From a bacterium (GTDB taxonomy: Bacteria; SZUA-182; DTGQ01), in assembly GCA_040752695.1 (NCBI GenBank), contig JBFMGO010000083.1, positions 1-27,582 on the forward strand: a stretch of DNA of 27,582 bases, written 5' to 3'. Each line of letters begins with the position of its first letter. The stretch's first letter is position 1. Positions 4,270 through 25,061 of this stretch are shown here, in pieces. The position numbers and the translations under genes are program-made. The notes under the pieces are model-generated. The model saw nothing but the letters and a program-made list of their open reading frames with translations. It did not search any database and was not told the DNA's origin.

Positions 4270-4617
4270 TCATTCGTTCTGCAGTGCCATAACCTTCTCC
4301 AATTGGGCGATGAGAAACGGAAGGTCTTCAATAACCGTTTCTCGAACCATATCCAGATTCACATCAAAATAACCGTGAATGAGCCGGTCGCGCATACCGA
4401 TCATCTTTTTCCACGCGATATCAGGGTGAGCTTCACGAAATGCCGGAGAAACACCTCTGGCGGCCTCTCCAACAATCTCCAGAAGACGAACAAGCGACAG
4501 GCTCAACATTCTTTGGGTGCTTAGATCCGCGCAAGAGTGGCTACTCCTATAGAGGGCGACTGCTTCTTGAGCAGCATCAAGAATGTGATGCAGGCGGACG
4601 GTATCATTTTTTATCAT
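4270..4617 (-). CDS. HepT-like HEPN ribonuclease toxin (DUF86)
   Basis: RLLEIVGEAA...WKKMIGMRDRLIHGYF with Rx4H and the adjacent Tyr; likely ATG at 4617 overlapping the antitoxin end. Confidence 0.9.
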   Translation of the reverse strand: MIKNDTVRLHHILDAAQEAVALYRSSHSCADLSTQRMLSLSLVRLLEIVGEAARGVSPAFREAHPDIAWKKMIGMRDRLIHGYFDVNLDMVRETVIEDLPFLIAQLEKVMALQNE

Positions 4618-4915
4618 ATTGCACCTGCGCGTTTGCCAGCACCTCATCCCGGAAATACCGGCTCAGATCTTCGGCGGTCCGAAGATCTGCCTTGCGTCCA
4701 AGCAAGGATGATAATTCTTCCTCCATATCGAATAATCGAAAGAAGCTTGGCACATGGCCTGGTTCAAATTCAACCAGGATATCCACGTCACTGTCCGGTT
4801 TAAAATCCTCCCGCAGGACGGAACCAAAGAGGGATAGTTTGCGGATGTGGTTGCGTTGACAAAAATCTGCAATTTTACCTTTGGGTATGCTGATCTTTGG
4901 ATTTGAATTGCGCAT
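4604..4915 (-). CDS. MntA-like minimal nucleotidyltransferase antitoxin
   Basis: LFGSVLREDFKPDSDVDILVEF (GS-x10-DxD); directly upstream of the HEPN gene; start taken at ATG 4915. Confidence 0.9.
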   Translation of the reverse strand: MRNSNPKISIPKGKIADFCQRNHIRKLSLFGSVLREDFKPDSDVDILVEFEPGHVPSFFRLFDMEEELSSLLGRKADLRTAEDLSRYFRDEVLANAQVQYDKK

Positions 4916-4981
4916 CACGCGTATTTGTTTATCGTGTGGGTGGTCTTTTATTATGCCGGGGACCACAGTAGTTTTTCTGTA

Positions 4982-6442
4982 TTAGAGCCACAGTTGTTGT
5001 TTCAGTGCCATGGCTGCTGTTTTGGCAATCTCGATAAATGGCTGGGGATATACGGCAATGATAACGGTTATGACCAGGGAAATGCCGACGACCAGTTTCA
5101 TGAGTTGAGGGATCTCCAATTGACTGGCTGCGGATGCCTTTGCTTTTGCGGCTTCGTCTCCTCGCTCTACATAAATATAGCGCAGTACGTTGACATAATA
5201 GTAGACGGAGATCACGGAATTAATAATTCCGATAATAGCCAGCCAAGTCATTCCCCGGTTGATGGCCGAGGCGAAGAGGTCGAATTTTCCCCAAAAGCCG
5301 GGGGTTGGAGGTATTCCGATCATGGAGATAAGGAAAATGGCAATGGAAAATGACATAAGAGGGGATCTCTCTGATAATCCCGCCAGTTTTTTAATGTGAT
5401 GGTCTCCCTGCATGACTCCGGCGACCACGGCAAATGCTCCGATATTGACAATCCCATAAATCATAAGGTAAAAAATGGCAGCACTGAAAGCCATCTGGTC
5501 AGCAACGGCAAAAGCCATAAGGACATATCCGACATGGGCGATGCTGGAAAACCCGAGCATCCGTTTGATATTCGTTTGAGAAAGGGCTACGATATTGCCC
5601 ACACACATACTCATGACGGAGAGAATGATAAAGAGGATTCTCCACTGAGCGATCAAGGGGCTGAAGGCAGTGGTTACAAGACGGATCAAGGCGGCAAATC
5701 CGGCAACCTTCGGGGCTGTGGCCAGAAAGGAAGTAACCGGTGTCGGTGCTCCCTCGTAAGTATCGGGGACCCAAAAATGGAAAGGAACTGCCGCTATCTT
5801 GAAGGCAAACCCTGCCAGGATAAAAATTACCGACATCAAAAGGATAGGCTGGCTGTGGATATCAATGAGGCTCAGTTTCCAGGCAATGGCATCAAAGTTG
5901 GTAGCAGCCGTAAGCCCATAAATAAAAGTCATTCCATACAGCATAACCACCGAAGCCAGCATACCAAGCATCAGATACTTATAGGCAGCCTCATTCGAGC
6001 GGGCATCTTCCTTATCGATCCCGGACAGGATGTAAAGGGGAATACTCGTCAATTGCAGACTCAGGAAGAAACTGATGAAATTATCGGATGAAACCATGAA
6101 CATCATTCCGACCACCGAGAACAGAATCAGGCAGTAATACTCTCCCTTGCGGGTGATGGAGGAATTGAAATAATCCACCGAGAGCAGAATGACCAGGCCG
6201 GTACTCAAAAGCAGGATGATTTTTATGACGTGACCAAAAGAGTCGATGGTGAACAGGCCATTGAAGGACACCGGATTAAGAGAGAAGATTCGTACGAGTT
6301 GTATGACGGCCATGACGGGACCGGCCACTGCGGCTATGCCGAGGATCCTTTTCGATTTTTCCTGCATGAACAGATCTGCGGTCAGGATGATCGTGCCGGT
6401 GAGGAAGATGATAATTTCTGGCAAAAGGAGATTTAGATGCAT
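4982..6442 (-). CDS. nuoN: NADH-quinone oxidoreductase subunit N
   Basis: SNEAAYKY, FKIAAVPFHFWVPDTYEGAPTPV, KRMLGFSSIAH, GIPPTPGFWGKF; start ATG 6442 preceded by GGAG. Confidence 0.93.
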   Translation of the reverse strand: MHLNLLLPEIIIFLTGTIILTADLFMQEKSKRILGIAAVAGPVMAVIQLVRIFSLNPVSFNGLFTIDSFGHVIKIILLLSTGLVILLSVDYFNSSITRKGEYYCLILFSVVGMMFMVSSDNFISFFLSLQLTSIPLYILSGIDKEDARSNEAAYKYLMLGMLASVVMLYGMTFIYGLTAATNFDAIAWKLSLIDIHSQPILLMSVIFILAGFAFKIAAVPFHFWVPDTYEGAPTPVTSFLATAPKVAGFAALIRLVTTAFSPLIAQWRILFIILSVMSMCVGNIVALSQTNIKRMLGFSSIAHVGYVLMAFAVADQMAFSAAIFYLMIYGIVNIGAFAVVAGVMQGDHHIKKLAGLSERSPLMSFSIAIFLISMIGIPPTPGFWGKFDLFASAINRGMTWLAIIGIINSVISVYYYVNVLRYIYVERGDEAAKAKASAASQLEIPQLMKLVVGISLVITVIIAVYPQPFIEIAKTAAMALKQQLWL

Positions 6443-6518
6443 ATTTTTGCTTCTCCGCTCAGAAAAAGGGTCTTCTGTGTGCTGGGATTTTGATCGTTTT
6501 TTAAGACCATTCGCTGTA

Positions 6519-8015
6519 TCATGGCAATTGAATCCTCGCAATGAATTGGGCTGCATAGTTATGAAACGTAGACAGCAGCAATTTCGGGTAAAAACCCAGG
6601 AATATGATGATAACTGAGAGGGAAATAAGAGAAAAAATCAGCTTTTTATTGTAGGCTGCTACCTGGAGAGTACCCGCCTGATCAGATGATGGCTGATGAT
6701 GACCCAGACCACTGTCACTTGAAGTCCCCCGAAATGAGATGGCCGGTAACATCGAGAAAATATATCCTGCCATGATTACGGTGCCGGTCATGGCTATGAT
6801 CCCGAAAATAACCTGGCTCTGGAACGCACCGGACAGGATATAGAATTCGGCGATGAAACTGCTCATGCCCGGAAGCCCGAAAGAAGCCAGGAGGAGAAGC
6901 CAGAACAGCATGGCACCTGTCGGAATGTAGTGAACGATCATGCGTAGTTTCCTGATTTCAATCGTACCCAGGGTATCTTGAATCATGCTGATGGCCATGA
7001 AGATGGCACCGGCAATGATGCCATGATTAAACATATGGAAGATGGATCCTTCAATGCCTATTTTATTCAAGGCTCCGACACCCAGCATAATCAGACCCAT
7101 ATGCCCCAGGCTGGAATAGGCGAACATCCGTTTGAGGTCCGTCTGCGCCGCAGCACACAGGTTGGCATAGATGATGGTAGTGACCGCCAGGATGCAGACA
7201 AGCCAACTGAAGGTTGCGCTTCCCTGCGGAACCAGACTGTATCCCACCCGGATAAAACCGTATACGCCCATTTTGGCCACTAATCCTGAGAGCAGCACCG
7301 TAATCGAATTGGGTGCCTCGACATAAGCATCCGGCTGCCAGCTATGGAAGGGAAAAAGAGGTACCTTGATGGCCAGGCCAATGAGAAGGAAGATGAAGAT
7401 GACCCTCTGGAATCCGATCGAAAAATTGGCTGTAAGCAGCGCAGGGATACTGAAGGTGTGCATATCGGCCCGAAAGTAGATGGCAAGGATGGCAATCAAC
7501 ATGACCAGGCTGCCCAGGAGAGTATACATCAGAAATTTGATGCTCGCCTTTTGCCGGTTCGGACCGCCCCAGATGCCGATGAGGAAATAGCCGGGAATCA
7601 GAACAACCTCCCAGAATACATAAAAGAGGATTAGATCAAGAGACAGAAACACCCCCAACAGCCCGCATTCCATAAGCAGAAGGCAGGAGTAGAATGCCCT
7701 CAGCCGGTACTCCTCCTGATGCATGGCCATAACCACCAGAAAGCTCAAAAGGCTTACTAAAAGCACCAGGCTTAAGTTGAGCCCATCCACTCCGAGGAAA
7801 TAGGACACTCCAAGCCCCTTGACCCAGATTACATTTTCCACAAACTGGTAATCCTGGTTGAGTTGAAAATGAAAAAGCAGATATATGGAAAGTATAAGGG
7901 GAATAGCCGTGCTTACCAAGGCGATTTTCTTCGCAGAACTCTCTTTGCCCGGAAGAAAAAAAATCGCGATTGCTCCGAGTATCGGTGTCCATATTATTAA
8001 CGACAAGAGAGGCAA
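6519..8015 (-). CDS. nuoM: NADH-quinone oxidoreductase subunit M
   Basis: LGVDGL, FYVFWEVVLIP, IKVPLFPFHSW, AKMGVYG, LPGMSSFIAEF; TTG start after AGGAG; 498 aa, without NuoL's long C-terminal extension. Confidence 0.93.
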   Translation of the reverse strand: MPLLSLIIWTPILGAIAIFFLPGKESSAKKIALVSTAIPLILSIYLLFHFQLNQDYQFVENVIWVKGLGVSYFLGVDGLNLSLVLLVSLLSFLVVMAMHQEEYRLRAFYSCLLLMECGLLGVFLSLDLILFYVFWEVVLIPGYFLIGIWGGPNRQKASIKFLMYTLLGSLVMLIAILAIYFRADMHTFSIPALLTANFSIGFQRVIFIFLLIGLAIKVPLFPFHSWQPDAYVEAPNSITVLLSGLVAKMGVYGFIRVGYSLVPQGSATFSWLVCILAVTTIIYANLCAAAQTDLKRMFAYSSLGHMGLIMLGVGALNKIGIEGSIFHMFNHGIIAGAIFMAISMIQDTLGTIEIRKLRMIVHYIPTGAMLFWLLLLASFGLPGMSSFIAEFYILSGAFQSQVIFGIIAMTGTVIMAGYIFSMLPAISFRGTSSDSGLGHHQPSSDQAGTLQVAAYNKKLIFSLISLSVIIIFLGFYPKLLLSTFHNYAAQFIARIQLP

Positions 8016-8025
8016 TTTTTTTCTC

Positions 8026-8334
8026 CTACCATTTCAGGAAATCTATTTGGTCAATATTAATGGTGTTTCTTAAACGATAGAGATTGAGAATAATGGCCAG
8101 CCCTACGCCGATTTCTCCTGCTCCTACGGCAATAGCAAATAAGGAAAAGATCTGCCCGGTCAGGTCCGATCCGCCAACATAGGCTGAAAAGGCAACCAGG
8201 TTAATATTTACGGCATTCAACATGAGCTCTATGGATACGAGAATCATAATCGAATTCCTTCTGGCCAGTACTCCATAGACGCCAACACAAAAAAGCACTG
8301 CGGAAAAGGTCAGGTAGTAGGAGAGCGATATCAT
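8026..8334 (-). CDS. nuoK: NADH-quinone oxidoreductase subunit K
   Basis: SIELMLNAVNINLVAF...GQIF...AGEIGVGLA. Confidence 0.95.
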   Translation of the reverse strand: MISLSYYLTFSAVLFCVGVYGVLARRNSIMILVSIELMLNAVNINLVAFSAYVGGSDLTGQIFSLFAIAVGAGEIGVGLAIILNLYRLRNTINIDQIDFLKW

Positions 8335-8852
8335 GGTTCTTCTTTCTCCTCATCAGGTGTATTCTCCTCTTTGCCTCCGATAACGACGGCCCCGATCAGG
8401 GCTACCAGCAAGATTATGGACACAATCTCGAAGGGGAGAACATAATGAACGAACATAACCTTGCCAATCGCTTCCGGCGCCATGATGATTGACGGCTGAT
8501 GGGCCTGCACCGGCCACTTGGTGGTTATGATGCCGAACATCAACAAACCGAAAAGAACAACCGAAGTAATGAAGGCAGGCACTCTTTTAGGGTGATCGAG
8601 CGCCCGGACCACACCTTTGGCCGGTTTGGTAAGCATCAGAGCGAACAGCAGCATGATGGACACCCCGCCTGCATAGATCAATACCTGCACCCCTGCCATG
8701 AATTCGGCATACAAAAGAATGTAGATGCCGGCTATGCCCAGTAAGGCCAGAACATGGGAATAAATACTGCGGGCGATATTATCCGCTGAAACCATGACGA
8801 TTCCGGCGACAATAGTAATAATGGCTAAGATAATGAAGATAAAAAGTTGCAT
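8331..8852 (-). CDS. nuoJ: NADH-quinone oxidoreductase subunit J
   Basis: AEFMAGVQVLIYAGGVSIMLLFALML, YVLPFEIVSIILLVALIGA; ATG 8852 with GGGGAAG upstream. Confidence 0.93.
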   Translation of the reverse strand: MQLFIFIILAIITIVAGIVMVSADNIARSIYSHVLALLGIAGIYILLYAEFMAGVQVLIYAGGVSIMLLFALMLTKPAKGVVRALDHPKRVPAFITSVVLFGLLMFGIITTKWPVQAHQPSIIMAPEAIGKVMFVHYVLPFEIVSIILLVALIGAVVIGGKEENTPDEEKEEP

Positions 8853-8882
8853 AACTTCCCCTGGAGCTTGATCATGAGGCAA

Positions 8883-8905
8883 TCAAAGGGCCCCACGACC
8901 CTTGA
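8883..8905 (-). other. Intercistronic hairpin between nuoI and nuoJ
   Basis: mRNA UCAAGGGUC-GUGG-GGCCCUUUGA immediately after the nuoI stop. Confidence 0.45.
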
Positions 8906-8907
8906 GC

Positions 8908-9321
8908 TCAAACGTCCACCATAATCTTATCTATGGTATAAATCAAGTCATTTTTATCGTACGTAGCCAATTCATACTCATGCGTCATGATCAAGGCACC
9001 GAAAGGACATGCCTCGACACACAAACCGCAATACATGCACCTTGCGACATCTATGGTGTATTCCTTGGGAAACTTCTTTTTTTCTCCTTTTTCCGGATCG
9101 CCCGCTCCTGCAACAATCTGAATGATATTATCCGGACATGCCCTGGCACAGACTCCGCAGGCAACGCATTTCAATTCACCGGTTTCCTTGCTGCGAACCA
9201 GCCCGACCCGCCCGCGGAAACGCTCCTTCAGGACCGGTTTTTCCTTTGGATACTGCTGGGTAATCGGCTTGTCGAAAAGGTGGCTTATGGTAAGCCTCAT
9301 CCCGGTTAAAATCCCTTTCAT
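8908..9321 (-). CDS. nuoI: NADH-quinone oxidoreductase subunit I (2x[4Fe-4S])
   Basis: TQQYP...RFRG, CVACGVCARACP and CMYCGLCVEACP. Confidence 0.95.
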   Translation of the reverse strand: MKGILTGMRLTISHLFDKPITQQYPKEKPVLKERFRGRVGLVRSKETGELKCVACGVCARACPDNIIQIVAGAGDPEKGEKKKFPKEYTIDVARCMYCGLCVEACPFGALIMTHEYELATYDKNDLIYTIDKIMVDV

Positions 9322-9364
9322 GGTTTCATTACTCCTTATCCTTGCTCCTTATCCTTTTGCCTTT

Positions 9365-10336
9365 TTAATATATCTTCAGCATGATTAACAACCCGGTAAT
9401 GACAACGTTCACCAAAGCTGCCGGCAGCAGAATCTTCCATCCCAGGGACATCAACTGGTCAGCCCGCACCCTTGGCAGGGTAGACCGGGTCCAAAACAGG
9501 ATGAATATCAGGCTGAAGGTTTTGATGAAAAACCAGACCAGCCCCGGCAGCACCGGACCGTACCATCCTCCCAGAAACATGGTCGTGCAAATGGAGCACA
9601 GGGTAAAAAGACCGATGTATTCGGCCATGAGCAGGAGGGCAAACCGCATACCGGAATACTCGACATGGAAACCGGCGACCAGTTCCGACTCTGCTTCCGG
9701 CAGGTCGAAGGGAACCCGGCAAATCTCGGCATTTAACGCGATAAAGAAAATAATAAAAGCCAGCGGCTGCTTGAAGATGTACCAGTTGAAGATATTCCAG
9801 GTGCAGCCCTGAGCATTGGCGATATTGTTTAAATTCATGGTCCCGGCCATCATGATGACCGCCAGAGCGGATAATCCCATGGGCAGTTCGTAGCTGACAA
9901 ACTGACCGATGGAGCGCATGCAGCCTAAGAGGGAGTATTTATTATGAGATGACCAGCCAGCCATCATATACCCGACGGTGGATATGGATAAAACAGCCAT
10001 CACGTAGAAAATTCCCATATTCAAATTTGCTGCTTTTATGGTGGAAGTGAACGGAATGGCAGCCATGACCATGAAGGCAGGAATAAAAACGACAAATGGC
10101 GCGGCGGTGTAAATAATGTAATCGACACCGCTCGGTATGCTCATCTCCTTGACGACCATCTTCATGGCGTCGGCAATGGGCTGAAGCAGGCCGTGATAGC
10201 CGGTCCTCATCGGCCCCAGGCGGTACTGGAAATGGGCCAGCGCCTTTCTTTCCAGCCACATGGAAGAAAGCAGAATGATGAGCAGTCCAACAAGCATGCC
10301 AATGGCTACGAGAAACTGTATTCCGATGCTGACCAT
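9365..10336 (-). CDS. nuoH: NADH-quinone oxidoreductase subunit H
   Basis: ERKALAHFQYRLGP, GLLQPIADAMK, RVPFDLPEAESELVAGFHVEYSG, LPRVRADQ. Confidence 0.96.
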   Translation of the reverse strand: MVSIGIQFLVAIGMLVGLLIILLSSMWLERKALAHFQYRLGPMRTGYHGLLQPIADAMKMVVKEMSIPSGVDYIIYTAAPFVVFIPAFMVMAAIPFTSTIKAANLNMGIFYVMAVLSISTVGYMMAGWSSHNKYSLLGCMRSIGQFVSYELPMGLSALAVIMMAGTMNLNNIANAQGCTWNIFNWYIFKQPLAFIIFFIALNAEICRVPFDLPEAESELVAGFHVEYSGMRFALLLMAEYIGLFTLCSICTTMFLGGWYGPVLPGLVWFFIKTFSLIFILFWTRSTLPRVRADQLMSLGWKILLPAALVNVVITGLLIMLKIY

Positions 10337-11431
10337 TTAGCGATCTACCTCCCCCATGCAAATATCCACCGTGCTGAAGGTAGCAATTACATCGGCTACC
10401 AGCACACCAGGCAGGACATATTGCAATATCTGCAGGTTTACAAAGGCAGGACTGCGGAATTTGATCCGGTAAGGGGTCTTATCCCCGGCGCCGATAATGT
10501 ACACTCCCTGCTCTCCTACCGAAGTCTCGGTTCGAAAGTATCCTTCCCCGTCAATCTTGATCACCTTGGGAACCTTGGCACAAATCTCTCCATCCGGCAT
10601 CCTCTCGGCCGCCTGACGGACAATCTTGTTTGATTCCCTCATTTCCTGTAAACGTAAGTTATACCGGTCAAGATTATCCCCCTTTGTCCCTACCGGAACG
10701 GAAAATTCAAAATCCTCGTAAGAGGAGTAGGGTTCGGCCTTGCGGATATCGTACTCGATCCCGGTGCTTCGCAGGATAGGTCCGGTGATTCCCAGATTTA
10801 CAGCCAACTCCTTTGACAAAACGGAGATTCCTTTCATTCTGGATAGGAATATCTCGTTTCCTGACAGAAGTGCTTCATATTCATCGACGATCTTGGGAAG
10901 CCGTTGGGTGAAAGCCACTATCCGATCGAGAATCCCCTCAGGCAGGTCCTCTTTTACGCCTCCGATTCGAAAATAGTTAAAGGTAAGCCTGGCCCCGGAG
11001 ATTTCCTCCATGAAGTCCAAAATGGTCTCCCGGTCCTTAAAGGAATAAAAGAAGGGAGTCAACGCGCCAAGGTCCATGCCCAGAGCGCCAAAGAAGATCA
11101 TGTGATTTTGCATTCTTGATAATTCAGCCATCATGACGCGGATGTACTGGGCTCTTTTGGGAACCTCGATACCGAGCAGGCTCTCGACAGCCAGACAATA
11201 GGTCAGTTCATTCTGGAATGCATTGGCATAGTGTAACCGATCGGTAAGGGCGATGATTTGCGGATAGGTTCGAGTCTCGGCTAATTTTTCAATCCCACGA
11301 TGTAAATAGCCGAGATGAGGCTGGCACATTACCACTCGCTCCCCATCAAGCTCCAGCATCATGCGGAAGACACCGTGTGTGCTGGGATGCTGGGGACCCA
11401 TGTTTAAAAACTGCGTTGTCTTAATTGCCAC
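10337..11431 (-). CDS. nuoD: NADH-quinone oxidoreductase subunit D
   Basis: NMGPQHPSTHGVFR, GYLHRGIEK, DRLHY, terminal GEVDR; no NiFe-binding CxxC pairs; GTG start. Confidence 0.95.
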   Translation of the reverse strand: MAIKTTQFLNMGPQHPSTHGVFRMMLELDGERVVMCQPHLGYLHRGIEKLAETRTYPQIIALTDRLHYANAFQNELTYCLAVESLLGIEVPKRAQYIRVMMAELSRMQNHMIFFGALGMDLGALTPFFYSFKDRETILDFMEEISGARLTFNYFRIGGVKEDLPEGILDRIVAFTQRLPKIVDEYEALLSGNEIFLSRMKGISVLSKELAVNLGITGPILRSTGIEYDIRKAEPYSSYEDFEFSVPVGTKGDNLDRYNLRLQEMRESNKIVRQAAERMPDGEICAKVPKVIKIDGEGYFRTETSVGEQGVYIIGAGDKTPYRIKFRSPAFVNLQILQYVLPGVLVADVIATFSTVDICMGEVDR

Positions 11432-11480: not shown

Positions 11481-11996
11481 TTATGATTGATTAGACAACA
11501 GGAAATCCTTTCTTAATGGAAAACCTTCAAAGTCCTCTCTGAGCAGTAAATGCCTCGGATCAGGATGTCCCGTGAAGGTGATTCCCAGCATCTCTGCTGT
11601 TTCCCGCTCATGCCAGTCCGCTCCCTTGAAAACAGGATAAAGGGAGGGAACTTTCGGTTTTTCCCGGGGGATTTTGACCTTGACCGTGATCTTATGCTTT
11701 CTGGTTATTGAACAAAGGTGATAAACTATTTCCAGGCATTCTCCTCTGTCAACACCGCACAGGCAGCGGGGATGATTGAAAGCCAGTTCCGATTCTTTGA
11801 GGAACGTGCACACCTCAAGGAGATTTTCGGCAGATACCCAGATGGCCAGTTCCTTGTTGATCACCTGGGATTGTTGAATCTTCTGGCCGAAAGCTTTGGC
11901 CAGGGCCGCCTCTATTTCCTCAGGGCTCAATGGCTTTGCGGAAAAAGCATCCGCCTTGTCGTCAGGTGTCGGGCTTGTTTTGATCTTACCCTTCAA
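11481..11996 (-). CDS. nuoC: NADH-quinone oxidoreductase subunit C
   Basis: [27 protein letters not shown]...[11 protein letters not shown] start overlaps the nuoB stop. Confidence 0.93.
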
Positions 11997-12538
11997 CTTC
12001 TTATCCCCCAGGCAGAGTTGAAAGCGCTTTTGGCGTTATTCATGATTTTTTCCTGCAATTTGACTACCCCGTTCATCAAAGCCTCCGGCCTCGGCGGACA
12101 GCCAGGGACATAAACGTCAATCGGCAGAACCTTGTCTATGCCGGGCAGGACATTGTAAGAATTATAAAACGGACCTCCACTGTTGGCACAGCTTCCCAGG
12201 GAAATGACCCACTTGGGCTCGGGCATCATCCCATAGAGCCTTTTGACTACCGGCAGCATTTTATAGGTGACTGTTCCGGCTACAATCATCAGATCCGCCT
12301 GCTTCGGTGTAGCCCTCGGCAGCACTCCGCTTCTTTCATTGAAATCGTAAGTGGCTGAACCCGCAGCCAGCATTTCAATGGCGCATCAGGCCGTGCCAAA
12401 GGTAAGCATAAATAAGGATGATTTTCTGGCCCATCCGCGAACAAGCTCCAGGGTGCCGGTGATGATATTAAAATCCTGCCCTTCTGAATACGCGGTCTTA
12501 TCAAAAGTAATGATAGGCTGATCCTGCTGTTGATCCAT
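11993..12538 (-). CDS. nuoB: NADH-quinone oxidoreductase subunit B, predicted selenoprotein (TGA = Sec51)
   Basis: ATG 12538 with AAGGA upstream reads [12 protein letters not shown]...[18 protein letters not shown][TGA]CAIEMLAAG in frame with the 11993..12373 ORF. TGA at 12386-12388 replaces the first Cys of the canonical ACCAIEM. The other ligands, GSCANSGG and VPGCPPRPE, are intact. 181 aa. Confidence 0.9.
12337..12380 (-). promoter_or_regulatory. Putative bacterial SECIS element in nuoB
   Basis: mRNA after UGA-UGCGC: CAUUGAAAU-GC-UGGCUG-[CGGGUU]-CAGCCA-CUUACG-AUUUCAAUG. 9-bp lower stem, 6-bp upper stem, G-containing apical loop 22 nt after the UGA. Confidence 0.75.
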
Positions 12539-12664
12539 GCTCTTTATCCTTATTCTCTTTATCAGTTTTGTCCGTATGCTTCTCTTGTTCGAGCTTTTCT
12601 CTCTTAAGTGTTGCGGTTTTCTCTCTTTACGTTCTTCTTTGCCCGATCCTGAATTTTTCTTAGC

Positions 12665-13033
12665 TTAAACCCACCTTAAGACGTTCTTTTTCCAGGCGTA
12701 AACTAAACCCAGAGCTATGATGGCAATAAAGCTGAACATTTCGAAAAAAGCTACCCAGCCCATGTCTCGAAATACAACTGCCCATGGATACATGAATACC
12801 GTTTCGACATCGAAGAGTACAAAGAGAAGGGCGAAAACATAATACCGAATGTTAAGTTGCCCCCAGGGTTCTCCAATAGGGACAAGTCCGCATTCATAGG
12901 GAAATGATTTTTCTTTTGAGGGACGGTGAGGGGCAAGGATCCTGCTGACCGTAAGAACTATCATTACATATAAAAGACCGACCAGCGCAAAGATCGCTAT
13001 ATAGGAATACTCTTGCAGGAATTGCTCTACCAT
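12665..13033 (-). CDS. nuoA: NADH-quinone oxidoreductase subunit A
   Basis: KSFPYECG, RYYVFALLFVLFDVETVFMYPWA, YAWKKNVLRW. Confidence 0.96.
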   Translation of the reverse strand: MVEQFLQEYSYIAIFALVGLLYVMIVLTVSRILAPHRPSKEKSFPYECGLVPIGEPWGQLNIRYYVFALLFVLFDVETVFMYPWAVVFRDMGWVAFFEMFSFIAIIALGLVYAWKKNVLRWV

Positions 13034-13748: not shown

Positions 13749-16700
13749 GTGTGTAAGGGTAAAAAAATTCCTCTCGTAACGATTGGGGTCAGTTTCCTTG
13801 TTTTTTTCTGTTTTCCCCTCCGGGTTTACTCATTCGATGGATCTTTGCCGATCTATAAATCCGATACGTGTCGAGAATGCCATTGTAATCCTGAACTTCC
13901 TTCACCCCTTCCACCGCAGATAAGGAAAGATCATGGCAATCATCCATCAGGCAGAAAGTGGGCCGATACGTCCTGCGCGGTTTCAGGGTGCCACAGCAGT
14001 GGCTCTTGTACTGATAAATTCAGGCTGGATGGATATGAACACAACGATTCAGAAGTATCTTTCTGGCAATTGAAACCTCTCCCTTTTCATGAGCGAAAAT
14101 TTGATTGCATCTCCTGTCACTCATCTCATCATGAGAACAATGGAGAAGACCCTCTTGTTTTGAATGGCAATCCGAGCCACTTACTCTATGCTGATTTTCA
14201 AAATGATAATCCCGCTTTTTGCGAGTACTGCCATGGCGGTTGTAAGGCATCCCCAAAGGGCGCACTATCTCACCTGGCAGCGAATAATGGGAAACATTAC
14301 AAAACGATAGATAATTCCCCTATCGTACGGACAACTATTACTGCCGCAGGCGAAAAGGTTGTACGCAGATGCGGTGGGTGTATGTTCTGCCACTTTATTC
14401 ATTTGGATCAGGATGACCCGCGGGATGTACCTAAAACATCATGGCCGGAGGATAAGGCGGGGGAGACCTTTATCCAAGCGGACATCAATGCCTTGATGCG
14501 GGTGCCGCCCCGGCCGCTCGAGTGGGGAAATCAGGGTACCCCATCGGGAAGTAATCCGATAGGCCGCTATGAGGCCTTATGCTATGGGTGTCACGGCTAT
14601 CCAGCCATAGTTGGCGGTTATGGCGAGAATGGAAGCTTGCTGAAACCCGAAGGGATGAACTTCAGTCATCGTTTTGCCTGCAAGCCTTCAAGTGAGAATA
14701 CTATTACCAATACCGGTGTGGGAGCGGGTAAATTCCCATTGGCGGATGGCAAGCCCGGTGCACCTGGCGGTATCATGGATGACTACGGTACGGCGGCCGG
14801 GCAAATCTATTGTGGTACGTGCCATGATGTGCACAATAATCAGAAGCCTCCCTATTTGTATCAATTAAGTCCCTATGATGTTGCCTCACCCTATAAGTCT
14901 GATGATGGAGGCAGTGTCGTGACTTCCCAGGCTGCAAGAGATGGTTTTTGCGAACAGTGCCATTGCTCCGTAGATAATCCTGATCCAATGCATCGAGGCG
15001 CAACCCACCCAGTCGGAAAAAGGGTTCTTCCTCTTCCTCCCAAAACGGTAGAAAAATTTACGGATATCTTCTTTTGTGGAGGGAGCGGACTTCCTTATGG
15101 CATTACGTATTCTCAGAGCGGCGGCAAGGGTGGGGTGATCTGTTTGACATGCCATAATGTACACGCGGCATCAACCTCCTGGAATGGGACAGTGCCTGGT
15201 GAGACCACATCTGCCGGCAGGCCGGGAACTCATGGCCGTCTGCTCGTCAAGGACAATAATGCATCGCCTCCTGGCGGTAACCTCTGTCAGGGCTGCCATA
15301 ATCGATTCTCGGTTGACGGATCACCGCTCTATGGCGGGCACTTGTGTACTCAGCGCGATACCGGAGAGGAAATCCAGGTTTGTGCTGCCTGCCACAGGCC
15401 GCACGGAGCGAAAGGGAATAAAATCTGGGCGCGTGATTTATCCCCGGCAGGCACGGAAATCAAGACAAAAGACCTGTGCGTGAGTTGTCACCATCGGCCG
15501 AACAACGAGTTTTGCAAAATCTCTTCCGGCTTAACGTTCAGGGATAAGGGAGGGACACCCCAATGGGATGGCATACCGAGTAAGGATAGCAGTTATAATA
15601 ATAAAAATGGAAATGTTTTTGAATTGCAAAGAGGTGAAACTGACCGCAGCGCTGATCATGTCATGGGAGAAAAAGCAAGGAGGGGTGTTGAAGGTACTTC
15701 GATGACTGCCGAAGTGCCTCATGAACTCCGTCACTTCAGTGAGGATGAGGGCTTTTATTGTGGATCGTGCCATGATCCACACAAACAGCCAAATGGAAAG
15801 ATAGATGGAAACGGTGATTACCTGCGGGTTATGTATGGCGTGGATGCAGGGACTACTCACAACCGCAGGAAATTTTGCAGGCAGTGCCACCCCAGCAAAG
15901 GGGCCAGGATTAGGATCCATGATGAGGGCTCAGATCCACAATGTGAAGCATGCCATAGGCCCCACGATGGGTATAAATATGAAAATGATGACGATCCGAG
16001 AGAAAGACTCATCTTTGTGGATTATCTCCCTTTAACAGAGCCTTTCCAATTCCCGTATACTCCTGAGCTTTTTGACCTTTCCTCACAGACAAGTGTCTTT
16101 TACAAATCCACTCATTGTACATCGTGTCATTTAAGCTACAAAGATCCTGACGGCAGGTCTCTATGGCCGTGTGCTCCAAAACTTAGCAAGACTCGCGGCC
16201 ATCATCCCATGGGCCGCCCCTGGCAGAAAACCTCTTGCGCAGTTTCCGGGTGCCATACGGTTAATTTGCCTGCCGCCCTTGGTCTTTTCAGATTAGACGG
16301 TTACGCTAGAACCGCGGATGGTCAGGTTCAAGACCCGCTTCCAGACAGCGATCCGAGAAAGATCTTCAGTTGCATCTCCTGTCATGCAGCTCATACCGAT
16401 GCGGTCCCGGGCAATGAAAAGTTCTTGCTTTATGATAATTTTAAAGATGATGCTACTGCCTATTGTGAACATTGCCATACTTCCGCATCAGAGAGTACGG
16501 CAAGAAGCAGATTCACACCGCATGCTAAAACGAAAGAGGTTCTCAGAGGGAAGCATTTACAGAGCAAGTCAACAAGTCCCAATGGGCGAGGGGGTTGTAT
16601 GTTCTGTCATTTCACTCACCTGAACGATACAAACGACCTTGGCGGAAGATCCAGGGCTCTTCCTGAAAAGGCCAGAGTGAGTCAAGTCCCGACACAGATC

Positions 16701-17723
16701 AAGGCCCTGATGCGAGTCCCGGCTAAGCGCCTGGACTGGGACACTCAAGGAATGAACATCACCCTCATTCCTGATTCTCTGGACCGCTATGAGGCGCTGT
16801 GCTACGGGTGTCATGGAGATCCTTCCATAGTCAATAATTATGGAGAGGGCGGTTCTTTATTGAATCCATCGGAAAAGAATTTTCATAGTCATCGATTCGC
16901 CTGCAAGCCTGAAAAAGGTAGCAATACTCTTTTTAATCTCGGCAGGCGTATAGATCAATTCCCAATAGGTGATGGTCAGCCTGGTGCACCTGGCGGAGTA
17001 AGGGATGATTACGGTACGGTGGCAGGGCAGATCTACTGCGGTACGTGCCACGATGTGCACGACAATGGCAAGCCGCCTTATTTGTACCGTCTGAGTGCGG
17101 ATGATATGGCTTCGCCATATAAGTCTGATGATACAGGCATTACAGTGTCATCCCAGGCCGAAAGGGAGGGTTTTTGCGAGCAGTGCCATTGTACTCCAGA
17201 TAATCCTGACCCAATGGGGGAAGGTGTAACTCACCCTGTTGGGGAAAAAGTAATCCCCAATCCTCCCACCCTGTCACCATTTCCTGAAACATTTTATGGC
17301 GGAGGAAGCGGATCGGAGAGGGGCATTACCTATGGAAATTTCAAAAATGGCAACCGGCAAGGGGTAATATGCCTGACCTGTCACAATGTCCATGCAGCCA
17401 CGACTCCCTGGAGCGGGACTGTCGGCTCCACAACGGCTGAGCCGAACCTTCATGGTTATTTGCTCGTTGAGGATAATTATCAGGGACCTCCGGGCAGTAA
17501 TATGTGCCTGAGCTGCCATGACAGCGAGCAGCGCTGCAATGGAGACGCTAACCAGGATGGCGGGGTGACTCCTGCTGATGCTTTACTGATTTTCAAGTGC
17601 TACCTTGATATCGGCATCTGTCCTTCACAGTGCGCAGATGTGAATAAAGATGGCGGGGTGACTCCTGCTGATGCTTTATGCATTTTTAAACGCTACCTTG
17701 GATTACCCAGTTGTCTGGATTAG
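13749..17723 (+). CDS. Secreted giant multiheme c-type cytochrome (25 heme motifs) with C-terminal dockerin-like domain
   Basis: GTG start after AAGGAGG; N-terminal signal peptide (KGKK plus hydrophobic stretch); 23 CxxCH and 2 CAVSGCH (CX4CH) counted by eye; C-terminal GDANQDGGVTPADAL...ADVNKDGGVTPADAL. Confidence 0.92.
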   Translation: MCKGKKIPLVTIGVSFLVFFCFPLRVYSFDGSLPIYKSDTCRECHCNPELPSPLPPQIRKDHGNHPSGRKWADTSCAVSGCHSSGSCTDKFRLDGYEHNDSEVSFWQLKPLPFHERKFDCISCHSSHHENNGEDPLVLNGNPSHLLYADFQNDNPAFCEYCHGGCKASPKGALSHLAANNGKHYKTIDNSPIVRTTITAAGEKVVRRCGGCMFCHFIHLDQDDPRDVPKTSWPEDKAGETFIQADINALMRVPPRPLEWGNQGTPSGSNPIGRYEALCYGCHGYPAIVGGYGENGSLLKPEGMNFSHRFACKPSSENTITNTGVGAGKFPLADGKPGAPGGIMDDYGTAAGQIYCGTCHDVHNNQKPPYLYQLSPYDVASPYKSDDGGSVVTSQAARDGFCEQCHCSVDNPDPMHRGATHPVGKRVLPLPPKTVEKFTDIFFCGGSGLPYGITYSQSGGKGGVICLTCHNVHAASTSWNGTVPGETTSAGRPGTHGRLLVKDNNASPPGGNLCQGCHNRFSVDGSPLYGGHLCTQRDTGEEIQVCAACHRPHGAKGNKIWARDLSPAGTEIKTKDLCVSCHHRPNNEFCKISSGLTFRDKGGTPQWDGIPSKDSSYNNKNGNVFELQRGETDRSADHVMGEKARRGVEGTSMTAEVPHELRHFSEDEGFYCGSCHDPHKQPNGKIDGNGDYLRVMYGVDAGTTHNRRKFCRQCHPSKGARIRIHDEGSDPQCEACHRPHDGYKYENDDDPRERLIFVDYLPLTEPFQFPYTPELFDLSSQTSVFYKSTHCTSCHLSYKDPDGRSLWPCAPKLSKTRGHHPMGRPWQKTSCAVSGCHTVNLPAALGLFRLDGYARTADGQVQDPLPDSDPRKIFSCISCHAAHTDAVPGNEKFLLYDNFKDDATAYCEHCHTSASESTARSRFTPHAKTKEVLRGKHLQSKSTSPNGRGGCMFCHFTHLNDTNDLGGRSRALPEKARVSQVPTQIKALMRVPAKRLDWDTQGMNITLIPDSLDRYEALCYGCHGDPSIVNNYGEGGSLLNPSEKNFHSHRFACKPEKGSNTLFNLGRRIDQFPIGDGQPGAPGGVRDDYGTVAGQIYCGTCHDVHDNGKPPYLYRLSADDMASPYKSDDTGITVSSQAEREGFCEQCHCTPDNPDPMGEGVTHPVGEKVIPNPPTLSPFPETFYGGGSGSERGITYGNFKNGNRQGVICLTCHNVHAATTPWSGTVGSTTAEPNLHGYLLVEDNYQGPPGSNMCLSCHDSEQRCNGDANQDGGVTPADALLIFKCYLDIGICPSQCADVNKDGGVTPADALCIFKRYLGLPSCLD
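13941..17519 (+). repeat. Intragenic duplication of a 9-heme module (about 13941-15299 and 16203-17519)
   Basis: Both copies run from HPxGRxWxxTSCAVSGCH through GGCMFCHF, RYEALCYGCHG, DDYGTxAGQIYCGTCHDVH, GFCEQCHC and GVICLTCHNVHAA to PPGxNxCxxCH. Confidence 0.9.
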
Positions 17724-20315: not shown

Positions 20316-21377
20316 TTAGTTCTCAACACTTTTCTTTATGGTCTGCCAGAGGTCATTTTCGACCATGTGAGCATTTGGCAGGAAATCGACATACAGGGAA
20401 TGACGGTCCTGGTTCTCTCTATCGAAAGGAACAATCATACAGAGCCTGGTTCCTGAGCGGATGATCGATTGATGAGTGATTCCGGTAACGATACCTTCGA
20501 GTGGAGACAAAATATTTCCCGAGTCGAAGCTCATGGGGTCCATGATATCTCCGATTTTTTTCCCCTGATGAACTATCTGGCCAAGGTGGATGTCCGGCTT
20601 GAAGATGCCGCCGCTTGGGCTTCGAATCCATTCCTCGTTGGATTTGAGAAGGATCTGAAATTTGGGAATGAGGGCCACTCCTTTAATCATACCCAGAACC
20701 TTCATGACGTTTTCACAGGCACATAAGCCAACCTTGACGTTGTTGCTGCTGATCAGTCCTGCTGCTCCGATCTCGATGGTCAGACACCGGATGCCGATTT
20801 TGGCTGCCTCCACTTGCAGCATACCATTGACTGCCGGTCCCTGCCAGATGACATTAATGCCGGTGGAATTCATGAATTGGTTATGGGCTTCATCCATGCC
20901 GGATTCCGAGCGCAGACGGATATGGGGAATCATCTCGTCCGGGAATTCGGCTGAGTGCAGGTCGATGATATAGTCAGCATGAGGGACGATGTTTTCAAAG
21001 AAAAAATGGGCTACCCGCTCGGTCAGCGTTCCATTCCGGTCTCCGGGGAATACCCGGTTCATATCCTGCCGGTCGATAGGATCCCAGCGATTGCCTGCAT
21101 TAAAGCCCATCGGGTTGACTACGGGGACTGCCAGAACAGTGCCGCACAGTTTTTGTGGGTTGATTTTATCAACCAGTTTTCTGATAACTTCAACTCCAAC
21201 CACCTCGTTTCCGTGGACCGCTGCGTTGAGCAAAAGGGTTGGGCCAGGGCGGCATCCATAGATACCGAAAAAACCAAGGAAAATTTCCTGCCGGTAGGCG
21301 TTTTCGGCGATAATGAATCGCCGGTACTCTTTGGTCCCGGGTTTAGGAGTGAAGAGTGAGTCCTGCTTTGACACCAT
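20316..21377 (-). CDS. Succinylglutamate desuccinylase/aspartoacylase (AstE/AspA, M14-like) family zinc deacylase
   Basis: AAVHGNE, DMNRVFPG, IDLHS, TIEIG; C-terminal barrel-sandwich (RSPSGG...SPLEGIV). Confidence 0.88.
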   Translation of the reverse strand: MVSKQDSLFTPKPGTKEYRRFIIAENAYRQEIFLGFFGIYGCRPGPTLLLNAAVHGNEVVGVEVIRKLVDKINPQKLCGTVLAVPVVNPMGFNAGNRWDPIDRQDMNRVFPGDRNGTLTERVAHFFFENIVPHADYIIDLHSAEFPDEMIPHIRLRSESGMDEAHNQFMNSTGINVIWQGPAVNGMLQVEAAKIGIRCLTIEIGAAGLISSNNVKVGLCACENVMKVLGMIKGVALIPKFQILLKSNEEWIRSPSGGIFKPDIHLGQIVHQGKKIGDIMDPMSFDSGNILSPLEGIVTGITHQSIIRSGTRLCMIVPFDRENQDRHSLYVDFLPNAHMVENDLWQTIKKSVEN

Positions 21378-22428
21378 ACGATTCTCTTTGCTTTTGAACC
21401 TTTTGATTTATAGTACCCAAAAAGTTATTTCTCGATTCAGGGGTATTTTCCAGAAACTGTACTTCGAGTTTTGACCGCAGTTCCTCCATAGACAGAGAGT
21501 TGGCTATGATCAAGCCGGATATGAATTCCGGAGCGAGGCCATACTGCTGCTTAAGGTAGTGTATTGCACCATACGCATCAACACTGCTGCTGGCAGCCAA
21601 GGCAAAAAGCGAGATGTCATTCATGATAGATGGACAACGCAAAACCATCTCGGTTTCCCTCTGAAATATTCCATCCGCCACTTCCATGATCAGAAATTCA
21701 CAGCCGCTCAGGCTGAAGTATCTTTTAAATACCTTGAAAATAGATTCCAGATCCGTCAAAGAGCATTGGTATGTTGCAGGATACCCGATGTCCATAAAGT
21801 CCAGAACGGCATGGGCACCGTAAGCCTTCATGCAAAGGATGTCTTTCATCCGGGAAGTCCCGGTGAGTTTTCCCCCGCCGACCCTGAATCCGTTGTTAGT
21901 GAGAATATCGATGATTCGTCCGGCAGTGAGCGTTTTTCCGCAATCCATATCTGATCCGAAAACAGCGATAATTTTCAAGGCAGACCGCTTTTCCTGCGTG
22001 GTTATTCCAAAGTGCGCGGTATTCAATTTTTTCCCCTGATCATCGACTGCATGGCCGAGGTAAATCAATTTCGTGGGTGCCTTGGCCACCGTGTTCCGAC
22101 TCAGTGCCTCCCCGGCGATTCCTCCGACATTCAGGAGGTCAAACTCTGCGCCCTGCACCAGCTTGCGGGGCACTCCTCCATGAAATTCCCGTGTGGAGTA
22201 CCTTCTGCCCAGAACGACGGCTACCACGTCTCCGATCTGCAAGGTCATCTCCCTGCCTTCCGGCTCCTCAAACCTGGTATGCTGGCCAAGCTCGGAGACT
22301 TCTCCGATGACCACATCCCCACTTTCCGGGTTGCAGCCAAAGCCTGCATCTGTTTCTTGAGGTGAGGAAAGGGAATAGACTCTCCGTGTCGAAGAGGAAC
22401 GGATGTTTATATGATACCGTATGGACAT
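21343..22428 (-). CDS. DUF1611-like P-loop protein
   Basis: VFGSDMDCGKT P-loop variant, KLTGT, VLDFMDIGYPATY, MEVADGIFQRET. Start uncertain (ATG 22428 or TTG 22470). Confidence 0.7.
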   Translation of the reverse strand: MSIRYHINIRSSSTRRVYSLSSPQETDAGFGCNPESGDVVIGEVSELGQHTRFEEPEGREMTLQIGDVVAVVLGRRYSTREFHGGVPRKLVQGAEFDLLNVGGIAGEALSRNTVAKAPTKLIYLGHAVDDQGKKLNTAHFGITTQEKRSALKIIAVFGSDMDCGKTLTAGRIIDILTNNGFRVGGGKLTGTSRMKDILCMKAYGAHAVLDFMDIGYPATYQCSLTDLESIFKVFKRYFSLSGCEFLIMEVADGIFQRETEMVLRCPSIMNDISLFALAASSSVDAYGAIHYLKQQYGLAPEFISGLIIANSLSMEELRSKLEVQFLENTPESRNNFLGTINQKVQKQRESYGVKAGLTLHS

Positions 22429-22479
22429 AAAGCAGTTTTCCGACTGTTGTGCAATCGCCTTTTCGTACAATCGTTTTAA

Positions 22480-23373
22480 TTATACTTGATTGTCTTTATA
22501 TGTCAAGGAGGGAAGATCCAGTATCCTCTCGAGAGATTCAAGCAGGCAGGTAACAGGAAGACCGACGATATTGGTATAACACCCTTTAACCTGAGTGACA
22601 AAGCGGGCTCCTGTGCCCTGAATCCCGTAGGCCCCGGCTTTATCCATCGGCTCCTGGCTGACAATATAATCGTCGATTTCGTCCTTACTCAAGGTCCGAA
22701 AGGAAACCTTCGATTCAACGGATTCCAAAATCCTGCGGCCGCTTCTGGTATCGATGACGGCAAGCCCGGTGATGACCGTATGAGTGTTGCCGCTTAAGAG
22801 GCCGAGCATTTCCCTGGCATCTTGTTCATCCCTTGGCTTGCCAAGAACCTTCCCGTCGAGAACGACGATCGTGTCAGCTCCGATTATGATTCCGCTGCGC
22901 CTGCGGCCAGCCACAGCCTCGGCCTTGAGCAGGGCCCAGGTGCGTGCTTTCTCTTCGGGCAGTCCCGGTACGTCATTCTCCTCCACCTGACTGGGAATAA
23001 CCTCGAATTTCAGACCCAGAAGGTGCAACAGCTCTTTTCTGCGCGGTGAAGCGGAAGCCAGAAGGAGGGGGAAATGTTCACCAGGGAAGTTTTCATCGAG
23101 GTGCCGGTTTATCCGTCCGGCCCGGCTGGTTTGGTCGGCCAGGTCAGCTTGGGTGGCCCGGTCGGCTTGGGTTGTCTGGGTTGTCTGGTCAGCCTGGGTT
23201 GTCTTGTCGGCTTGGCCGGCCTGGTTGGTTTGATTCATTCGGGCAGTTCGATTGATATCGTAAGGTATCTTCAAAATGATAATTACCTCGTTCGTGTAAT
23301 TCTCTCCGAGATGGTCGAGCATGTTGTACTGGGCAGATGGTTGAGCATTATGCATATTTCGCCTACTATACAT
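22480..23373 (-). CDS. maf: Maf-family nucleotide pyrophosphatase (YhdE-type) with repetitive N-terminal extension
   Basis: LLLASASPRRKELL, GADTIV, GKP, DKAGAYGIQG, NIVGLP. Start uncertain: ATG 23373 (TGATG overlap with the upstream gene) or ATG 23238. Confidence 0.88.
   Translation of the reverse strand: MYSRRNMHNAQPSAQYNMLDHLGENYTNEVIIILKIPYDINRTARMNQTNQAGQADKTTQADQTTQTTQADRATQADLADQTSRAGRINRHLDENFPGEHFPLLLASASPRRKELLHLLGLKFEVIPSQVEENDVPGLPEEKARTWALLKAEAVAGRRRSGIIIGADTIVVLDGKVLGKPRDEQDAREMLGLLSGNTHTVITGLAVIDTRSGRRILESVESKVSFRTLSKDEIDDYIVSQEPMDKAGAYGIQGTGARFVTQVKGCYTNIVGLPVTCLLESLERILDLPSLTYKDNQV
23107..23232 (-). repeat. 14 degenerate 9-bp tandem units encoding (Q/R)-(A/T)-(D/T/G)-type tripeptides
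   Basis: Units CAAACCAAC CAGGCCGGC CAAGCCGAC AAGACAACC CAGGCTGAC CAGACAACC CAGACAACC CAAGCCGAC... give QTNQAGQADKTTQADQTTQTTQADRATQADLADQTSRAGRIN. Confidence 0.85.
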
Positions 23374-24422
23374 CAAACGACCAGATTTCTCAGGTAGCGA
23401 TTCCTATAAAGCAATACTATCGATAAAAGCGCAAAGATATAAGCGGCAATCGGATAGATGATGACCCAAGATGTACTGAAAAACAAAGGCTTAAGTGGTT
23501 TAAGCATATTTATAAACAGAATATGCGATACATATACTCCCAAGGTATATTTTCCCAGCGCGGGGAGATACGTACATTCTAAGAAGTCCTTTTTAGCGAG
23601 GGCAAAAAGCATAACGCCAGTACCATAAAGCAGCGTCCCTATCAAACAATCATGAAACAGGGGAGTTACATTGTAAAATTTATAGAGCAATAAGGCCTCT
23701 GTCGTATGCAGCAAAAATCCTACGGACGAAATTATACAGGCGGTAGATGCTTTTACAAAAAACTCGTTCTGTGACAACCACCAACCGATTGCAACAAAAA
23801 TTGTACTAAAAAAGGGGCCATTTCGTGTATTGAACGGGAATTGAAATCCAAGTGGGGTAAGGGAATAAGCACCTCCGAGTAAGCCAAAAACATAAAGGGA
23901 AATCGATACCATGGGAACTGTTTTATCCAAACCATGAGAAATCAGCACCGTCAAGATACCAAGGGCAATTATCAGGGATACGAGAAACCAGAGGTGACCT
24001 GATGTCCCTTCTAACAAAAGTCTCCCTGGGTGATCGATTATCCAATAATGAACTTTACTATAGAGTGCTCCTGATAAACCCTTTTCAGCGATTTCTTGAA
24101 GACTTATTGAGATAATGAAATAGATAATTGACCATTTAACTAAAATACCTGACAGGCGCCTGGCATACCGAATAAAAAGAGGTCTTGCCCCGATACCTGA
24201 CTGCAATTTTTTTCCGAAGAAATATCCAGAAGCTATAAAAAAGAAGGGTACCGCAAAACGTGCTCCTTGATTGGTAACAATTGCGAGCAGCCTGGATAGC
24301 TCTCCCTTATATTCATTGATATTTAATGTCATACTATGCAGGTAGACTACAGCAAAGATAGCCAGGACCCTCATCGAATCAATACTGGCAATGTATAAAC
24401 TTTTTTCTTTTTCTTCCTGCAT
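23373..24422 (-). CDS. Acyltransferase family 3 (Acyl_transf_3) membrane protein
   Basis: IDSMRVLAIFAVVYLH, RFAVPFFFIASGYF, HLWFL, LGKYTLGVYVSH; multiple transmembrane segments; ATG 24422 assumed. Confidence 0.88.
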   Translation of the reverse strand: MQEEKEKSLYIASIDSMRVLAIFAVVYLHSMTLNINEYKGELSRLLAIVTNQGARFAVPFFFIASGYFFGKKLQSGIGARPLFIRYARRLSGILVKWSIIYFIISISLQEIAEKGLSGALYSKVHYWIIDHPGRLLLEGTSGHLWFLVSLIIALGILTVLISHGLDKTVPMVSISLYVFGLLGGAYSLTPLGFQFPFNTRNGPFFSTIFVAIGWWLSQNEFFVKASTACIISSVGFLLHTTEALLLYKFYNVTPLFHDCLIGTLLYGTGVMLFALAKKDFLECTYLPALGKYTLGVYVSHILFINMLKPLKPLFFSTSWVIIYPIAAYIFALLSIVLLYRNRYLRNLVV

Positions 24423-24689
24423 GAACGTATGTTTGATAGTAATAGACCCGTGAAACGGCGGTAAGGCAACGTCTTCTAACAACGTACCTTATGTCCAAAA
24501 ATACAAAGCTGCGAACCTGTAAAAGAGTATATAAGCCTGAGAGGAAAAGGTCAACGGTTGTTTTTCAACCATAAGATCAAGCCCGAACTGAGAGGGTTCC
24601 CCGAAGGAAATAGAGAGCAATGCAATTCCGGGTACGAGCGAATCTTTATCATCAGCTAGTGCCTTGTCAAGTCTGATTATGATGCGTAA

Positions 24690-25031: not shown

Positions 25032-25061
25032 CTTGAGCGTTCGGTTTTTCGCAGCCCGCAA

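Follow-up and report, generated by a model that had tools for sequence, protein, structure and literature searches.

Does an in-frame TGA codon at a cluster-ligand position of a respiratory subunit mark a broken gene, or is it read through during translation, and if so as what? The question is raised by the nuoB gene on a contig of 27,582 nucleotides (GenBank assembly GCA_040752695.1, contig JBFMGO010000083.1, positions 1-27,582; hereafter, the window) from a bacterium of the GTDB lineage Bacteria; SZUA-182; DTGQ01, in which codon 51 is TGA where a Cys ligand of the terminal iron-sulfur (Fe-S) cluster N2 is expected. Among the Fe-S clusters of complex I, N2 is the terminal one and has been studied the most; debate continues over its unusual tandem-Cys ligation, pH-dependent potential and role in coupling. 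The results described here make it likely that UGA51 is recoded during translation, most probably as selenocysteine (Sec) on N2, and that nuoB is one intact gene. The source genome (G000) is 96.6% complete and comprises 239 contigs; other genomes, contigs and loci are cited by G, C and L numbers where they need to be told apart. The elements of the gene itself are as follows.

12538..11993, minus strand: nuoB, full length through UGA51; 181 residues plus a TGA stop; matches PF01058, TIGR01957 and NF005012

12388..12386, minus strand: codon 51, an in-frame UGA standing where the tandem-Cys N2 ligand pair has its first Cys; read from the sequence and aligned to solved chains

12551..12547, minus strand: Shine-Dalgarno-like AAGGA, spaced 8 nt from the ATG at 12538; read from the sequence

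A mechanical list of open reading frames (ORFs) holds only 11993..12373 for this gene, a piece of 126 amino acids beginning at Met56, which bears out both the observation of a preliminary description of the locus that the gene had been called from an internal Met and its expectation that standard pipelines would truncate it. No Shine-Dalgarno-like sequence lies upstream of Met56. The same frame continues upstream to the ATG at 12538 with its ribosome-binding site, as had been proposed, and the translation contains a single UGA, in the context FGTA-U-CAIEM, with the second TGA serving as the genuine stop. Read through, the protein scores 100.3 bits against PF01058 (cut-off 27), 210.5 against TIGR01957 (cut-off 142.7) and 223.3 against NF005012 (cut-off 116). 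The Pfam Oxidored_q6 (PF01058) match begins at residue 51 itself, with residues 51-161 covering profile positions 1-128 of 128. Residues 51-52 align with the ACC of the tandem-Cys motif in solved PSST/NUKM chains, which are 50-57% identical, placing the UGA on the first Cys of the pair. The sole Cys or UGA positions of the protein are U51, C52, C117 (in GSCANSGG) and C147 (in PGCPP), so that Cys occupies three N2 ligand positions (52, 117 and 147) and UGA the remaining one, and the two further ligands named in the preliminary description are indeed there; all four positions would be filled if UGA51 were read as Sec or Cys. The gene shares with canonical Cys-type NuoB/Nqo6/NDUFS7 (PSST) its family, its place in the operon and the four ligand positions, and differs in using UGA as the codon of the first ligand, with a hairpin resembling a selenocysteine insertion sequence (SECIS) after it. 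It is the only NuoB homolog in G000. Passages of PMC8042128 describe the tandem pair (C85/C86 in Yarrowia) as strained N2 ligands, of which C85, the first, is the more mobile and lies beside the quinone-binding Tyr of NDUFS2.

The TGA is conserved. Codon 51 is TGA in all four assemblies of the genus, namely G000, its congeners G001 and G002, and L122, a metagenome contig that represents a fourth assembly with a genus-type nuoB and is 98% identical, not identical, to G001 at the nucleotide level; between species of the genus, nucleotide identity is 84-88%. In the Cys-type comparators G007 and G011 (same order), G013 (same class) and contig L123, which are 76-79% identical, the codon is TGC or TGT, so that the UGA lies opposite Cys of the homologs as the preliminary description had anticipated. 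Among 169 NuoB sites obtained in searches near the query, TGC or TGT was found in 165 and TGA in four, all from this genus. None of the best 80 genome-contig loci has the TGA form, and L122 is the only one of the best 80 metagenome loci that does. A stop-tolerant search for NuoB in 41 genomes (G000 and 40 relatives) gave matches in 31; of the 20 genomes examined from the small phylum of the source, 12 bear NuoB and three of these carry the TGA form. An internal TAA was flagged in two NuoB matches of the search over 41 genomes and in one match among the 20 genomes (G029, G016), and in the phylum of G041, where 114 of 120 genomes have a NuoB match, there is no stop among the matches listed.

Within the genus, 73 of the 161 gap-free codons vary synonymously only across the four assemblies and 14 vary non-synonymously. 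Among the 29 codons that precede the UGA, 13 vary synonymously and three non-synonymously, and the upstream part is therefore translated in this frame; purifying selection is seen on both sides of UGA51. These data bear on the possibility that nuoB is broken, i.e., that the TGA terminates translation, that the operon is decaying or that only the 126-residue fragment from Met56 is made. Standard ORF calling does yield that fragment alone, and the stop-tolerant search found NuoB to be absent from three genera of the same family (G003, G004 and G005), so the complex is dispensable in the lineage. Yet the TGA and the frame upstream of it are conserved in four assemblies with the excess of synonymous changes given above, Met56 has no ribosome-binding sequence of its own, and the fragment would lose both tandem ligands. 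The preliminary description had named signs of operon decay as a point that would speak against recoding; there are none, nuoA, C, D, H, I, J, K, M and N all being full-length family matches, and the same TGA recurs in 33 genomes of another phylum (see below). A truncated gene or pseudogene is thus very improbable, in line with the earlier reading. Still harder to credit is that the TGA is an error of sequencing or assembly, or that TGA is reassigned throughout the genome (e.g., to Trp or Gly): four independent assemblies agree, seven of the window's 20 ORFs with family support (nuoB among them) end in TGA, and nuoB alone of the 20 has one in frame.

Downstream of the UGA, the transcript would form a hairpin with the features of a bacterial SECIS element.

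12337..12380, minus strand: SECIS-like two-tier hairpin, from folding; 9-bp lower stem (12380..12372 with 12345..12337), internal loop and apical stem-loop

12352..12369, minus strand: apical stem-loop; 6-bp stem UGGCUG/CAGCCA and loop CGGGUU; begins 19 nt downstream of the U of UGA

The apical hairpin is identical across the four Sec-type (TGA-bearing) assemblies of the genus and is not formed in the three nearest Cys-type orthologs. Codons +1 to +16 after the UGA hold only two synonymous variants in the four assemblies, against 73 in 161 codons gene-wide (binomial P = 0.006), and both preserve the structure: through one, an A-U pair in the lower stem becomes G.U, and the other changes one base of the internal loop. 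Under a strict criterion (6 or more perfectly paired bp in the stem, GG in the loop and a start at +14 to +26), a hairpin was found at 24 of 36 Sec-type sites and at 2 of 171 Cys-type sites (Fisher 2e-20, a P value that overstates the difference because related sequences are not independent).

The same arrangement recurs outside the genus. A degenerate pattern, G-x-A-UGA-C-A-x-E-M, run over 401 genomes from the phylum of G045 (one row of which, L114, is labelled Nitrospirota), returned 34 sites in 33 genomes and none with a reversed-pattern control, and all 32 sites that were fetched are read-through NuoB genes. The feature is thus not confined to the organism in which it was first noticed. 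The NuoB of this second phylum, Nitrospirota by the L114 label, likewise has UGA for the first residue of the tandem pair (GLA-U-CAIEM), followed by a hairpin that starts at the same distance from the UGA and in which a conserved Gly codon supplies the loop G's; it differs in its protein sequence (about 55% identity), in its stems and in belonging to a separate clade with Cys-type members of its own. In the main class, of 19 distinct genes that are 65-85% identical in nucleotide sequence, a UGACGA/UCGUCA stem carries a CGGG(A/U/C) loop, and one gene has a GGCUGC/GCAGCC stem with an AGGU loop; two more classes, comprising 12 genes, have bulged stems with GUG or CGUGUAU loops, which were recognized by eye and missed by the strict detector. 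Between the genus and the main class of the second phylum, three of the six stem pairs are changed on both sides and are still paired. Over codons +5 to +12, the synonymous entropy of the 19-gene class is 0.233 bits, against 1.196 bits gene-wide, the lowest of 117 windows (rank 1/117); within this class no stem codon varies, whereas the loop Gly codon differs in its third base. The corresponding rank for the bulged classes is 7/106. In G499, a genome of this phylum, there are two Sec-type nuoB genes at separate loci (L256 and L258), one on contig C19 and one on C85.

In a quick maximum-likelihood tree of 171 NuoB rows, 34 of them Sec-type, the four rows of the genus group with four Cys-type rows (Shimodaira-Hasegawa-like approximate likelihood-ratio support 100), and the other 30 Sec-type rows fall with two Cys-type rows in a clade with support 99, so that the branches force at least two changes of state. 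In an approximately unbiased test on 43 rows (19 Sec, 24 Cys), a single Sec clade was rejected (delta log-likelihood 166, p = 2.2e-05); the rows for this test were picked after the tree had been seen and the large tree comes from nothing more than a quick search, which tells against the strength of both results. On these sequence comparisons, the Cys-to-Sec switch is best explained as having arisen within the genus from Cys-type ancestors, independently of at least one other phylum.

Insertion of Sec would depend on the corresponding machinery, and the preliminary description had named selA, selB, selC and selD as the genes to look for; all four were found in G000. A 650-aa SelB adjoins selA. 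The acceptor stem of the canonical tRNA-Sec is 8 bp long, its discriminator is G and its CCA is encoded. The selD gene (C71:28529-29590, minus strand; L212) itself contains UGA, in KSAG-U-ASKLGPG, followed by a hairpin with a 6-bp stem and a CGGGU loop that resembles the loop of the nuoB hairpin. Four molybdopterin/formate dehydrogenase genes of the genome have a U-H(S/A)(S/P)TV site with hairpins. The nuoB gene thus shares with classical selenoprotein genes (FdhA, SelD) an in-frame UGA opposite Cys, a downstream hairpin with a G-rich apical loop, and the presence of selA, selB, selC and selD in the genome. It differs in the position of the loop, for the GGU of the formate dehydrogenase genes of G000 lies at +21 to +23, whereas the GGGU of nuoB lies at +26 to +29, about 6 nt further from the UGA. 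It also differs in the role of the residue, for Sec in NuoB would be a ligand of an Fe-S cluster, where that of classical enzymes coordinates Mo/W or Ni or is redox-active.

A genome-wide screen of G000 for UGA-bridged ORFs, in which 16,376 candidates were reduced to 279 and then to 15 by coding potential and hairpin, recovered NuoB, SelD, one of the four formate dehydrogenase genes and a Sec-type alpha-2-macroglobulin; five further candidates were dropped as probable false positives, having no Pfam family. The screen is not an inventory, because three of the four formate dehydrogenase genes were missed. The alpha-2-macroglobulin family protein (2038 residues; C48:24274-30390, minus strand; L232) has its in-frame UGA in G-U-F-C-Q, at the start of the thioester (TED) domain, followed by a 7-bp hairpin with a GGU loop. 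This would be a Sec at what is probably the position of the thioester Cys, judging by the family motif CGEQ.

Several results weigh against a Sec-inserting hairpin in nuoB. The predicted structure is not unusually stable, with a fold z-score of -0.37 and 67 of 200 shuffled sequences folding at least as well; mean local folding energy is equal in Sec-type and Cys-type genes (-7.2 and -7.5 kcal/mol, respectively), and under a synonymous-recoding null p <= 0.05 was reached in 0 of 34 Sec-type genes. Within the genus the hairpin is invariant and therefore offers no covariation, and the synonymous-entropy window there ranks only 12/147 (4 sequences). Rfam, scanned by E-value over 12250-12450, returned no SECIS family and only two hits at chance level, and RNAalifold on 31 ungapped Sec-type sequences returned zero consensus pairs, because the loop lengths differ by 1-2 nt. 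Finally, the canonical tRNA-Sec was not found in G001, a genome that is 96% complete, at E <= 1e-8. The case for a putative SECIS element rests on position, loop content, synonymous-site conservation and compensating stems, and not on stability; the conserved hairpin on which the preliminary description's reading depended is present and identical in the congeners, though energy tests are non-significant and it has no Rfam match.

A further result concerns the identity of the inserted amino acid. On contig C9 of G000 (23145-25609; loci L003, L011 and L236) lies a second gene that ARAGORN and Rfam call tRNA-Sec (25520-25609). This tRNA, of 91-92 nt, has UCA as its anticodon and U as its discriminator, and its gene does not encode the CCA end. 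It is followed after 66 nt by a second SelB gene in the same orientation (23145-25454), whose 769-aa product has GTP_EFTU, SelB beta-barrel, SelB wing 2 and wing 3 domains. The U-discriminator tRNA and the SelB paralog are conserved in G001 and G002. The Cys-type genomes G007 and G013 each have a single SelB and a single tRNA-Sec, of the canonical type, and the pair was not found in either; in G011 (63% complete) there are two tRNAs of canonical type and no SelB wing match. Among the genomes compared, the pair co-occurs with UGA-NuoB. As set out in passages of PMC13582414, tRNA(ReC), or selC*, is recognized by its length (80 nt or more), its anticodon (UCA or GCA) and a discriminator base U, and tRNAs of this type decode UGA with a SECIS element as Cys, so that UGA in such genomes may be Cys. 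The G000 tRNA agrees with that description in length, anticodon and discriminator. The locus accordingly shares with selC*/SelB* (tRNA-ReC) systems the UCA anticodon, the U discriminator, a length above 80 nt and an adjacent extra SelB gene; it is no part of nuoB, and would be a possible second decoder of UGA51.

It follows that residue 51 may be Sec, Cys or either. One alternative is that UGA51 is recoded as Cys by the U73 selC*-type tRNA and the SelB paralog, always or when selenium is scarce. The tRNA, charged with Cys, would be brought to the same hairpin by that paralog, and NuoB would then be an ordinary protein with four Cys. The full SelB domain set of the 769-aa protein, its position beside a tRNA with the reported tRNA(ReC) traits, and the co-occurrence of the pair with UGA-NuoB among the genomes compared speak for this alternative, and the pair may insert Cys at this codon. 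Against it, TGC would be cheaper than a UGA with a hairpin, yet both are kept across three species; because the arrangement is costly if only Cys is wanted, Sec is favored, if not always then for part of the time. The same genomes retain the canonical machinery for Sec and the classical Sec enzymes, and the same UGA is widespread in another phylum. Recoding as Cys is therefore considered unlikely. It is somewhat easier to entertain, though still doubtful, that the N2 ligand is conditional, with Sec supplied through SelB and tRNA-Sec when selenium is available and Cys through SelB* and selC* when it is not, giving two versions of the cluster from one gene. Of the Sec-ligated N2 originally proposed, then, the recoding site at an N2 ligand stands, supported by the conserved UGA, the hairpin and selA, selB, selC and selD; the identity of the residue as Sec is less secure, since the selC*-type tRNA may give Cys. 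For the same reason, the suggestion that assembly of the enzyme is selenium-dependent is doubtful: with the second pair present, Cys could be supplied at UGA51.

If UGA51 is read as Sec, which we favor over Cys at this position, the mRNA hairpin starting 19 nt after the UGA would act as a bacterial SECIS element and recruit SelB with Sec-tRNA(Sec), and Sec would be inserted at the first position of the tandem N2 ligand pair. Full-length NuoB (U51, C52, C117 and C147) would then assemble into a complex I-like enzyme encoded by nuoABCDHIJKMN, which would have no NADH-oxidizing module of its own, and the terminal [4Fe-4S] cluster beside the quinone site would be held by one selenolate and three thiolate ligands. 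An effect of the selenolate on the redox potential of N2, or on the strain in the tandem pair, is conceivable. The remaining genes of the operon are as follows.

12665..13033, minus strand: nuoA; Pfam Oxidored_q4, 1.8e-38

11481..11996, minus strand: nuoC; Pfam Complex1_30kDa, 2.3e-43; its TTG start overlaps the nuoB stop

10337..11431, minus strand: nuoD, complex I type; TIGR01962, 481 bits against a cut-off of 459

4982..10336, minus strand: nuoH, nuoI, nuoJ, nuoK, nuoM and nuoN; Pfam, with the antiporter-like pair named NuoM and NuoN by NCBIfam

The gene order is nuoA-B-C-D-H-I-J-K-M-N, with nuoB between nuoA and nuoC, and the neighbors of nuoB match their families over their full length (Pfam, NCBIfam). 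Assignment of the NuoB protein as the small subunit of a group 4 [NiFe] hydrogenase (Mbh/Ech/Hyc) was rejected, as the partner NuoD has no CxxC NiFe-binding motifs. NuoD begins with GPQHPSTHG and ends with DICMGEVDR, motifs that we take to be of the complex I type, and its hits to NiFe hydrogenase models score only about 20 bits. The system differs from canonical respiratory complex I in that the operon has no nuoE, nuoF or nuoG gene and no NuoL, with nuoM and nuoN next after nuoK. All five NuoF-like genes of G000 are on other contigs, and no NuoL was found above the NCBIfam cut-off in the genome. Two clusters of four antiporter-like genes each are located on contigs C24 and C31.

Other genes of the window include one for a 1324-residue protein (13749-17723, plus strand) that is divergent from the nuo operon and has paired-CXXCH multiheme motifs, a domain like that of MtrC/MtrF, and a dockerin domain at its C terminus. 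Directly downstream of nuoN, 4270-4966 (minus strand) weakly resembles a HepT-type toxin and an MntA-type antitoxin (type VII toxin-antitoxin pair), with scores below the cut-offs. A 375-residue ORF (21343-22470, minus strand) between succinylglutamate desuccinylase-like and Maf-like genes matches no Pfam or NCBIfam family.

A Sec-type NuoB was not found in the literature searched; a passage of PMC9723677 does not concern Sec in Nuo. A term search of the main text, including the family table, of a 2026 review of prokaryotic selenoproteins (PMC13188914) did not find NuoB or PF01058, and passages of that review list Fe-S binding among the roles predicted for some selenoprotein families from their Cys homologs. 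What appears to be new here is a complex I-like enzyme with a predicted selenolate ligand to N2 and an independent origin in a small uncultured phylum.

If Sec did arise independently at the strained first position of the pair in two phyla, the selenolate may confer a real catalytic advantage, e.g., by easing the strain on the ligand or by tuning N2 to the low-potential quinones that anaerobes use. Gene callers truncate or pseudogenize nuoB genes of this kind, and complex I would therefore be scored as incomplete, a matter of 33 of 401 genomes in one phylum. If the recoding as Sec is correct, these enzymes would provide a natural spectroscopic and mechanistic probe of N2, through 77Se hyperfine electron paramagnetic resonance, an altered potential and an altered pKa. 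They would also add a selenoprotein whose Sec is an Fe-S ligand to a core respiratory complex, and its independent origin beside a tRNA mimic that may insert Cys bears on the evolution of Cys-to-Sec switches.

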